Shown here: positions 51,800 through 53,064 of the stretch, in pieces
Layout of the letters: each line of letters starts with the position of its first letter
Position numbering within the stretch: position 1 is the first letter of the stretch
DNA from: a virus
Lineage: Duplodnaviria; Caudoviricetes
Direction: 5' to 3' (one strand)
Virus record (IMG/VR): IMGVR_UViG_3300018036_000012
Span: 1-53,064 of that record
DNA: 53,064 bases
Made by a program: the position numbers and the translations under genes
Notes under the pieces: model-generated
What the model saw: the letters and a program-made list of their open reading frames with translations, nothing else
The model's database searches: none
What the model was told of the DNA's origin: nothing

Positions 51800-51934
51800 A
51801 TGGAAGTTATTATGATCTCATTGTGCATTGCAATCTGCGGTGTTATTATCGGTTACATTGTTGGTTATAATCATGGAGGCAAGGATATGGATCGTGCATA
51901 TAAAGACGCCTACAACATCAAAGATTATCGATAA
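51800..51934 (+). CDS. 44-aa single-TM protein (not in ORF track)
   Basis: GGAGG RBS; MEVIMISLCIAICGVIIGYIVGY. Confidence 0.6.
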   Translation: MEVIMISLCIAICGVIIGYIVGYNHGGKDMDRAYKDAYNIKDYR

Positions 51935-51945
51935 AAAACATTACC

Positions 51946-52022
51946 GCTCCTGTAGCTCAGTTGGTTAGAGCGCCCCGCTCATAACGGGTCGGTCGTAGGT
52001 TCGAGTCCTACCGGGAGCACCA
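51946..52022 (+). tRNA. tRNA with CAT anticodon (Ile2-lysidine or elongator Met)
   Basis: gctcctg/cgggagc acceptor, CTCATAA loop, TTCGAGT T-loop, encoded CCA. Confidence 0.93.
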
Positions 52023-52027
52023 ATAAT

Positions 52028-52102
52028 ATGGGTGAAGTGTTAATGGTTGCACGTCGGATTCCAAATCCGAAAGACAGAGTTCGATTCTTTGCACCTATGC
52101 CA
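52028..52102 (+). tRNA. tRNA-Trp(CCA)
   Basis: atgggtg/cacctat acceptor, tcgga-TTCCAAA-tccga, G discriminator, CCA end. Confidence 0.9.
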
Positions 52103-52119
52103 ATTTTAAAGAGGTCTAT

Positions 52120-52341
52120 ATGAAATATCTAACTGACGGCAAAAGACATTTGATATGTGATCCCTATTCGATAGAAAATCTTCATCGAATGGCAGATGAT
52201 CTAGGTATCAAGCGTTGTTGGTTTCATAAAGATCACTACGACATACCGAAGCGCAGGATCGAAGAAATAGAAGCTCGATGTGAGATTGTGTCGAGTAGAG
52301 AAATAGTGAAATACACTCATAAACGAAATACACTCCTATAG
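52120..52341 (+). CDS. DUF4031-like small protein inside the tRNA cluster
   Basis: GAGG RBS; HL....ENLH.MA..LGIKR.WF..DHYDI. Confidence 0.7.
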   Translation: MKYLTDGKRHLICDPYSIENLHRMADDLGIKRCWFHKDHYDIPKRRIEEIEARCEIVSSREIVKYTHKRNTLL

Positions 52342-52409
52342 CTCAGTTGGTTAGTAGCACAGCGCTCATAACGCTTTGGTCCTTGGTTCGAGTCCAAGTG
52401 GGAGTACCA
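52332..52409 (+). tRNA. second tRNA with CAT anticodon (Ile2 or elongator Met)
   Basis: actccta/tgggagt acceptor, CTCATAA loop, cttgg-TTCGAGT-ccaag, CCA end. Confidence 0.88.
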
Positions 52410-52417
52410 AATATTCG

Positions 52418-52552
52418 CTATGTAAGAGGTCGACATCTTACGTAGAGAGAACGCTGCCTCTGCCGTGGGACCTCGGTGGATGATCAGGTAAGTTCATTCT
52501 TACCGCAGGGGTAAAAGCCCTAAATGAGGTCTCAGAGATAGAATAGGCAGCG
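52418..52552 (+). ncRNA. unassigned structured RNA (hairpin plus multi-branch stem)
   Basis: ctatgtaaga/tcttacgtag; cgctgcct/aggcagcg; tgggacctc/gaggtctca; ggtaag/cttacc. Confidence 0.55.
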
Positions 52553-52562
52553 GCAACTGCCT

Positions 52563-52693
52563 TGGTTAGGAGACTATCGTTTGTGACTTTGCCGAGTTGC
52601 AGATAGATAGACTGTTTCGTCTAGTCAGGAAGGACACCAGGCGAACGCCGGGAAACACAGGTTCGAATCCTGTAACAGTTTTGCTCCTAACCA
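52563..52693 (+). ncRNA. tRNA-like ncRNA lacking a canonical anticodon loop and CCA
   Basis: Outer 10-bp stem tggttaggag/ctcctaacca; acceptor-like gactgtt/aacagtt; D arm gtct/ggac; perfect T arm acagg-TTCGAAT-cctgt. Confidence 0.7.
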
Positions 52694-52701
52694 GAAATAA
52701 A

Positions 52702-52777
52702 GCGGGTATAGCTCAGTTGGTAGAGCGTCAGATTTCCAATCTGAATGTCGTCGGTTCGAATCCGTCTGCCCGCTCCA
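52702..52777 (+). tRNA. tRNA-Gly(TCC)
   Basis: gcgggta/tgcccgc acceptor, tcaga-TTTCCAA-tctga, U discriminator, CCA. Confidence 0.95.
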
Positions 52778-52789
52778 TTAATACTTTCT

Positions 52790-53064
52790 AGGGCTGCAAA
52801 CCAGATAGTATGTGCAGGCAAGCATCGGGTCGCCAAGTTCGAACAAGGGTTTGTAGTAGAGAGTGACAAACCAGAAACCCTGAAACACCCAAAGCCGAAA
52901 GGTGAGTACGCTGTTAGGTCACTCAATAAGAGACCCGCACAAAGGTCTACCACTATCTTTGATAGGATACACGGATGTTTACGTGTTGAGGCAGGTTGAT
53001 CGCTGTCAAGGGAATTATTAGGGAACTAGGACAGGCTTCGGCTCCTCCTTGTGTATAGCCACAA
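52790..53064 (+). ncRNA. large unassigned structured RNA (may extend beyond the window)
   Basis: Nested long-range stems, GAAA and cUUCGg tetraloops, no credible ORF. Confidence 0.55.

Follow-up and report, generated by a model that had tools for sequence, protein, structure and literature searches.

Positions 52803-52958 on the plus strand of a 53,064 nucleotide (nt) viral contig (IMG/VR record IMGVR_UViG_3300018036_000012, analysed over its full length and hereafter called the window) encode one structured RNA, which starts 25 nt 3' of tRNA-Gly, the final gene of a transfer RNA (tRNA) array, and lies on the same strand. Its core at 52838-52927 comprises three helices, P1 together with P2 and P3 which cross each other as an H-type pseudoknot, and comparison with homologs indicates that this core very probably represents a real conserved RNA family, present here in permuted order. 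An original prediction made from the sequence alone had proposed a large, ornate non-coding RNA downstream of tRNA-Gly, and a string check located every sequence it quoted at its position. The comparative evidence bears out a non-coding structured RNA adjoining phage tRNA genes and gives it more modest dimensions, with a conserved unit of about 90 nt, or about 156 nt when the outer stems of the window are included.

The window sequence alone gives no signal above chance and the proof rests on homologs. In the 287 nt after tRNA-Gly that were examined (52778-53064) there are 5 perfect 7-mer inverted repeats, compared with 2.3±2.0 in dinucleotide shuffles, and at least 5 were found in 118 of 1000 shuffles. 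Minimum free energy (MFE) z-scores of this stretch were -0.24 on the plus strand and +0.47 on the minus strand, the whole 335-nt gap gave a z-score of +0.57, and the predicted folds miss the comparative structure.

The homologs present the same blocks in two orders. In the closed order, seen in phages mogra, PM2, Stubb and KpGranit, in an Erwinia phage and in a marine subgroup, the element reads 5' to 3' as the P1 5' strand, GAGUACGCUnUUAGG, a P2 strand, a variable linker ending in CGAAnA, a P3 strand (AGGGUU) and GUAGUAG, followed by the P2 partner, AAaCnAGa, the P3 partner (AACCCU), GAAACACCCAAAG and the P1 3' strand. In the permuted order, found in the window and in 14 other distinct copies, the same blocks run from CGAAnA onward with P1 as a hairpin, and the copies end in the P2 strand that comes after UUAGG with their ends open between P2 and P3. 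The alignments indicate that the two orders are a natural circular permutation of one another. When the closed copies were rotated in silico, 28 distinct copies aligned over 88 well-occupied columns, 20 of them invariant and 39 at least 90% identical, and the majority base agreed between both orders at 71 of 87 columns. About 45 junction nucleotides are nearly invariant across phages of unrelated hosts, and the family junction blocks CGAAnA, GUAGUAG, AAACCAGA, GAAACACCCAAAG and GAGUACGCUnUUAGG are every one present in the window. In a third variant the hairpin is shifted to directly after CCCUGA (Vibrio phage Va1 and KZY1), and the copy of Listeria phage LP-125 has both hairpins; the family tolerates rotated ends and optional inserted stems.

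A covariance model was built on 10 permuted copies with P2 and P1 only and used to align 15 distinct permuted copies, to which P3 was then added as a crossing helix. Standard pairs filled 95.7% of 231 cells, compared with 83.3±1.1% in shuffles and 26-48% with slid partners, both sides changed at 10 of the 16 pairs, and none of 500 shuffles reached any of the five measures used. P3, though absent from the aligning model, was 97.8-100% paired with compensatory changes at 3 of its 7 pairs, and in P2 both sides changed at all 6 inner pairs. The 13 closed copies were aligned with MAFFT and scored for P1 and P3, P2 being left out because its columns were inconsistent between subgroups; here 91.4% of cells were paired against 75.4±1.6% in shuffles, which reached the observed values in 0, 1, 0, 52 and 0 of 500 cases for the five measures, and P1 showed changes on both sides at 9 of 10 pairs. 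With all three helices scored in the 5 enteric closed copies, 96.6% of cells were paired (shuffled 79.8±2.8%) and P2 changed on both sides at 5 of 6 pairs. The shuffle control ignores the relatedness of the copies; the case for a real covariation signal is made by the slide controls and by the wide range of hosts. The three central pairings of the original prediction, AGGGUUU with AAACCCU, the crossing GAGUGAC with GUCACUC which had been suspected of forming a pseudoknot, and the GCC-GAAA-GGU hairpin, correspond to P3, P2 and P1 respectively. All are recovered as helices with compensatory changes in homologs, and all P1-P3 pairs in the window copy are standard.

Nineteen G-U or U-G cells in the helices would become A-C mismatches on the opposite strand and therefore fix the RNA strand as that of the tRNAs. 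The rotated block order and the compensatory pattern rule out a protein-coding reading, as do hairpins whose differences in length are not multiples of three; the two open reading frames (ORFs) that overlap 52778-53064, of 84 and 88 amino acids (aa), each also cross the tRNA-Gly gene. With coding excluded and P1-P3 covarying, neither of the objections that the prediction had itself raised, a protein-coding region or stems lacking covariation, held for the core.

In order to chart the family we compared the stretch and the core with 50,697 phage records by blastn. Only some 55-60 nt of the core matched, with identities of 75-89%, and the matches came from 106 records with the full stretch as query and 109 with the core, the latter including phages of Listeria (54), Proteus (10), Klebsiella (7), Vibrio (7), Pectobacterium (6), Erwinia (6), Escherichia (5), Rhizobium (5) and Flavobacterium (4, weak matches with an E value of about 3). 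T4-like and T5-like phages are among the carriers, as are viral and metagenome contigs, and the motif lies mostly within tRNA gene arrays. In 6 of 9 cultured-phage records inspected (PM2, Stubb, mogra, LP-125, KpGranit and pEp_SNUABM_01) it occupies an unannotated gap of the array, with a tRNA directly next in 4 of these 6; in the other three the Rhizobium phage copy lies between two coding sequences (CDSs), the KZY1 copy follows a holin gene and the Va1 stretch is without annotation. Many copies lie between two tRNAs, the adjoining species vary (Gly, Asp, Gln, Leu, Arg, Met, Glu), and the motif is co-oriented with the flanking tRNAs or CDSs in 8 of 8 annotated loci. The rest of the motif was present at 13 of 14 exact-word or gapped-pattern matches in viral contigs and at 16 of 27 metagenome matches. 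A pattern specific for the permuted order found 10 loci, and a gapped pattern for the closed order returned only 2 in viral contigs although more exist, the stored stretches being partial. Bacterial genomes were covered by one exact 19-mer and by E. coli only. The 19-mer gave 7 matches in 185,579 species genomes with the rest of the motif in none of the 7, which tests that exact word only, and a distant blastn search of 5,426 complete E. coli genomes with the mogra copy gave no match. All 5 complete carrier phages contain one copy each, as does the window. The single copy, the varying tRNA neighbours and the copies outside arrays suggest a discrete gene rather than a general tRNA-processing device.

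Two observations concern the surroundings of other copies. At loci L008, L014, L019, L021, L022 and L046 a second conserved block (…AAAAAGCCCCCACCAAACUAAUGGUAGAGGCUCUU…), perhaps a terminator or a further structured element, stands 10-70 nt 3' of the permuted motif. In Listeria phage LP-125 a promoter-like site (11 of 12 consensus positions, TG-extended) lies about 29 nt 5' of a unit formed by a pseudo-tRNA and the motif; a promoter picked by eye for L020 and L023 was not confirmed on checking.

Outside the core the window adds three outer stems, E1-E3 (Table 1), which it has in common only with L043, a 1506-nt metagenome contig identical to the last 612 nt of the window save one base far upstream. 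Covariation cannot test these stems because only this near-identical pair has them. The flank-to-flank duplex of the window is predicted at -21.1 kcal/mol; shuffling the flanks gave -12.0±2.9 (z -3.2), with 2 of 300 shuffles pairing as well, and most other permuted copies have no comparable closing stem. Of the nested pairings in the original prediction, AGAUAGU with ACUAUCU and UGUG..CGGGUC with GACCCG-CACA, the strings stand, with duplex energy as the support for their pairing. The core of the window sits at the tip of this lineage-specific three-stem helix.

The RNA had also been suspected of continuing past the window, and L043 shows how far it could. From L043 position 612, which corresponds to the window end, the contig reads CUCCCGUUUUAUUAUU, then an apparent fragment of an S-adenosylmethionine (SAM) synthetase gene, then a 159-aa ORF. 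Non-coding space reaches about 45 nt past the window end, up to a U-run that is terminator-like by eye only, for a total of about 330 nt after tRNA-Gly, and the RNA does not run on far. The 126 nt 3' of the element (L043 507-632) fold like shuffles (z -0.07); they cover the predicted GGC-UUCG-GCU tetraloop hairpin, whose string is present at 53034 and whose structure does not exceed chance. A consensus terminator scan near the window element found none. The element is 52803-52958 and the rest of the flagged span is unexplained spacer.

Table 1 Parts of the RNA element and the adjoining tRNA gene in the window
Feature	Position	Strand	Pairs with	Basis or remark
tRNA-Gly(UCC), final tRNA of the array	52702-52777	+		ARAGORN; Rfam tRNA 72.3 bits
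Outer stem E3, 5' strand AGAUAGU	52803-52809	+	52952-52958	
Outer stem E2, 5' strand UGUG	52811-52814	+	52938-52941	
Outer stem E1, 5' strand CGGGUC	52826-52831	+	52932-52937	Overlaps 10-nt block GGGTCGCCAA (52827-52836)
Core pseudoknot module, circularly permuted order	52838-52927	+		Covariance model R1, 108.3 bits, E 1e-20; sole copy in window
Conserved junction CGAACA (family consensus CGAAnA), 5' of P3	52840-52845	+		Alignments
P3, 5' strand AGGGUUU	52846-52852	+	52875-52881	
Conserved junction GUAGUAGA	52853-52860	+		Alignments
P2, first strand GAGUGAC	52861-52867	+	52918-52924	Crosses P3, giving the pseudoknot
Conserved junction AAACCAG	52868-52874	+		Alignments
P3, 3' strand AAACCCU	52875-52881	+		Covariation
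Conserved junction GAAACACCCAAA	52882-52893	+		Alignments
P1 as capped hairpin GCC-GAAA-GGU	52894-52903	+		Covariation; in the closed order P1 bears the 5' and 3' ends of the element
Conserved junction GAGUACGCUGUUAG	52904-52917	+		Alignments
P2, second strand GUCACUC	52918-52924	+		Covariation
Outer stems E1 and E2, 3' strands GACCCG and CACA	52932-52941	+		Flank duplex energy
Outer stem E3, 3' strand ACUAUCU	52952-52958	+		Flank duplex energy
Remainder of flagged span, non-coding, no supported structure	52959-53064	+		Folding compared with shuffles

The core behaves as a swappable, portable cassette. Contig L039 carries an identical 91-nt core (52838-52928, 100%) flush between tRNA-Asp and tRNA-Val without the outer stems, and the 10 nt before the core, GGGTCGCCAA, are the CCA end of a real tRNA-Asp in L039 and part of stem E1 in the window. 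Four salt-marsh RNA-library runs were compared with L043 at the level of contigs only. In all four, contigs agree with the left flank as far as L043 381, where they pass into one common other sequence, and a contig of run X8 enters from that alternative sequence at L043 477, which makes the alternative insert about 35 nt. The right-hand core boundary, window position 52928, is the same in these variant contigs as in the comparison with L039. Because the variant contigs keep the flanks and swap the insert, the same scaffold exists with a different tip; its 3' flank had no match in viral contigs. An X6 contig spanning L043 352-506 was considered as marking RNA ends and rejected, since such a contig is expected from a 31-mer assembly bubble round the swapped segment 382-476.

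No catalogued RNA accounts for the element. At gathering scores Rfam found only tRNAs in the whole window, and at E≤10 on 51800-53064 it found nothing credible in 52778-53064, the one overlapping match being a microRNA model at 20.7 bits (gathering 70). The Rfam check that the original prediction had proposed, for GOLLD, ROOL, ribonuclease P (RNase P), transfer-messenger RNA (tmRNA) and introns, returned no match even at E≤10, three closed copies had none at E≤1 with hepatitis delta virus (HDV)-type and riboswitch models included, and ARAGORN placed no tRNA or tmRNA in 52778-53064. A sub-threshold match to YrlA, a Y RNA-like RNA (27.1 bits, gathering 69), covers the tRNA-like element and tRNA-Gly at 52638-52757, outside the flagged RNA, and none of the 20 window ORFs scanned has a TROVE domain. 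The available part of PMC12282133 describes, in the transcriptome of the P100-type Listeria phage CKA15, three strongly transcribed unannotated regions near tRNA genes within 2 kilobases of CKA15_055. These data are not usable for the motif because sister phages have it at the far end of their tRNA region, and the idea of a Y RNA bound by Ro60 taken from that paper was dropped, the data not being mappable to the motif and the window having no TROVE ORF. Literature searches with the conserved 13- to 15-mers found none, those with 9-mers and one 11-mer found only unrelated primer or oligonucleotide contexts, and topic searches gave no description of the motif, with the supplementary motif lists of PMC10085705, PMC8040213 and PMC5737381, which might list it, outside their coverage. 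The element is new at the level of the RNA family; precedents exist for its broader kind, RNAs other than tRNAs within the tRNA arrays of phages. Two resemblances proposed by eye were not upheld: CUNUUAG as an anticodon-loop mimic has no closing stem, and a sarcin-ricin or loop-E motif (AGUA with GAA) had no support.

The closest precedents are species 1 (rnaC) and species 2 (rnaD) of phage T4, likewise non-tRNA RNA genes on the tRNA strand of a phage tRNA cluster, which the annotation describes as small stable RNAs of unknown function; in the T4-like phages PM2 and mogra the new motif fills a slot in the same tRNA region. They differ in that the conserved blocks are missing and that R1 has no match in the T4 tRNA region (L005), T4 itself being without the motif, and with no similarity of sequence or model they were rejected as homologs. 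The motif adds a well-defined member to the old question of non-tRNA RNAs in phage tRNA clusters, which dates to these two RNAs. A side observation is that the gap between Trna.2 and tRNA-Gln of T4 (L005 3040-3100, minus strand), the motif slot of PM2, holds AAGGGUUCUUGUUAGAGAG, which is like the P3/GUAGUAG part with the rest missing and no R1 match; it may be a decayed remnant of the motif.

Other known small RNAs resemble the motif in part. HDV-like ribozymes have a P3 stem with an L3 loop between P2 and the P1 3' strand, forming P1.1, whereas the motif has at that position only 7 nt (AAACCAG, 52868-52874; 7-8 nt in the family), too short for a stem-loop. It differs from them further in its lack of an Rfam HDV match, its long conserved junctions where theirs are short, its single-copy occurrence and the absence of a fixed tRNA species. 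The conserved core of the hammerhead, CUGANGA...GAAA, is absent, the nearest string being CUGAAAC with the variants CUGAGAA, CUGAGCU and UUGACCU. GOLLD and ROOL are phage or prophage non-coding RNAs which, as the original prediction noted, lie near tRNA genes; they measure several hundred nucleotides and are several-fold larger; membership of their class found no support at E≤10, and the other possibility then raised, an uncatalogued class, is what stands. Twister and hammerhead, according to the available part of PMC10085705, are small RNAs that occur in several natural circular permutations with optional or open-ended stems and are scattered in phages and metagenomes, and in contrast to them the motif has no Rfam match in either order. 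The available part of PMC10879173 places theta ribozymes, a minimal HDV-like form and like the motif small pseudoknotted RNAs of phages, immediately downstream of tRNAs, and in several permuted copies the motif starts 4-6 nt past a CCA end; both have crossing helices and a variable hairpin.

As to function, our leading guess, argued by analogy and held tentatively, is a discrete small RNA freed by tRNA processing that acts in trans on a conserved partner. The element would be transcribed together with the array, on the strand of the tRNAs, and would be released as a discrete small stable RNA by the nucleases trimming its tRNA neighbours, as with T4 species 1 and 2, whose annotation in the tRNA cluster is the precedent for this reading. 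The freed RNA would then act in trans through its conserved tertiary core, on a partner common to very different hosts which could be a conserved protein or RNA machine or a small molecule. The family is of interest in that the same knot of roughly 90 nt is kept, in one copy, by large virulent phages of Escherichia, Proteus, Klebsiella, Erwinia, Vibrio, Rhizobium and Listeria and by marine and salt-marsh phages.

Several points weigh against such a trans-acting RNA. The RNA-library contigs cover the element, yet they also cover neighbouring ORFs at similar depth and may contain DNA, so they provide no evidence of expression. The outer stems, being lineage-specific and backed by modelled energy, lend it no comparative support. 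In the marine subgroup with the closed order a P1 of 9-10 base pairs is followed immediately by a U-run after a CDS stop, which resembles a terminator hairpin and fits a cis-acting 3'-end element equally well. Natural circular permutation is to our knowledge very rare in RNA and, among small RNAs, otherwise a ribozyme trait. Its occurrence in hammerhead and twister (PMC10085705, in the part available) and the copies flush after a tRNA CCA end, in the manner of theta ribozymes (PMC10879173, likewise), favour a self-cleaving RNA.

A new class of small self-cleaving ribozyme is accordingly the main rival, which we consider rather unlikely. The junctions would form its active site, and a cut near the junction of CGAAnA and P3 would split a polycistronic transcript of tRNA or messenger RNA, for example freeing an upstream tRNA with a short trailer. 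Besides the permutation and the position after CCA ends, this is consistent with covarying helices around about 45 nearly invariant nucleotides in phages of both Gram-positive and Gram-negative hosts, with the scattered, cassette-like distribution, and with the permuted strand order P3-P2-P3'-hairpin-P2', which recalls the P1-P2-P1'-P4-P2' of HDV-like ribozymes. On the other hand there is no Rfam ribozyme match in either gene order, inspection finds no hammerhead CUGANGA core, and an HDV-type P3/L3 would not fit into the 7-8 nt between the P2 strand and P3'. That each genome has a single copy, with differing tRNAs next to it, speaks against a general role in tRNA processing, the long closing helix of the window would keep cleavage products together, and the contig ends in the RNA runs are assembly artefacts. 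Conservation of unpaired nucleotides at such a level usually reflects an active site or a binding pocket, and a doubtful but attractive idea is that the activity lies in the conserved knot itself, either as a self-cleaving ribozyme or as a free-standing aptamer that phages would make in large amounts from their tRNA arrays in order to sequester a conserved host molecule, for instance a nucleotide immune signal. If true, the ribozyme would be a new class and the third known to us in naturally permuted forms, and the aptamer would be an RNA counterpart of the phage protein 'sponges' against bacterial defence.

It is improbable that the element acts in cis on RNA stability or 3' ends, with the knot blocking exonucleases or marking a point of processing or termination in the flanking transcript. 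The marine subgroup fits this, as do copies directly 5' of a ribosome-binding site (RBS) and ATG (L007, L028), but a plain hairpin would suffice, about 45 strictly kept unpaired nucleotides exceed what a roadblock needs, the many copies between two tRNAs have both flanks trimmed anyway, and the window element has no terminator nearby in the consensus scan. Less probable still is a riboswitch-like aptamer controlling a downstream gene in cis. Covarying helices round invariant junctions are aptamer-like, and the few copies 10-25 nt upstream of an RBS and ATG would suit such a role, but the downstream gene is inconsistent, the gene neighbours of other copies being small unrelated ORFs with no shared function. 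The 6 of 9 cultured-phage copies among tRNA genes, 4 with a tRNA directly following, also speak against it, as does the lack of an evident expression platform or Rfam riboswitch match. That the element is a large ornate RNA akin to GOLLD or ROOL, or stands for a new large class continuing past the window, is scarcely credible, since in spite of the pseudoknot, the GNRA-capped helices and a position beside phage tRNA genes such as the original prediction held to be frequent for GOLLD and ROOL there is no match to either at gathering threshold or E≤10, the non-coding space is about 330 nt with a conserved unit of about 90 nt, and folding of the last 105 nt is no different from that of shuffles.

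The window, the entire viral contig, is linear with an estimated completeness of 15%. Its genes for replication and nucleotide metabolism are those of a large phage, with profile matches to both ribonucleotide reductase subunits, a DnaB-like helicase, a Toprim primase, a ResIII/DEAD helicase and a ClpX-like ATPase. By ARAGORN and Rfam the plus-strand tRNA array in its final kilobase consists of Met, Trp, Met, a tRNA-like element and Gly(UCC). The tRNA-like element (52609-52682, plus strand) scores 41 bits with the Rfam tRNA model and has a two-base 'anticodon' according to ARAGORN, its anticodon arm, judged by eye, being a GC-rich hairpin whose loop is very short. A 73-aa ORF (52120-52341, plus strand), which lies inside the array between tRNA-Trp and the second tRNA-Met, encodes a DUF4031 protein (PF13223, E 6e-13). 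Beyond the window, L043 639-878 (about 27-266 nt past the window end) is a start-less frame matching the SAM synthetase C-terminal domain PF02773 (E 3e-28) over no more than profile positions 1-56 of 138; it is apparently a fragment of a gene, directly after the RNA region. One RNA-library contig of run X8 joins L043 248 to 328, omitting 79 nt (L043 249-327, window 52701-52779) that are exactly the tRNA-Gly gene; with a shorter side of 30 letters only, this joint weakly suggests strains with and without a tRNA-Gly cassette. Finally, neither Rfam at E≤10 nor blastn against the phage collection gave a match for the 199-nt gap between tRNA-Met and the tRNA-like element (52410-52608, plus strand). 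This gap is predicted to fold at -76.0 kcal/mol compared with -56.1±4.4 in shuffles (z -4.5; 0 of 200 as good), a single-sequence signal far above that of the flagged region, which makes it a second candidate structured RNA of the same array.

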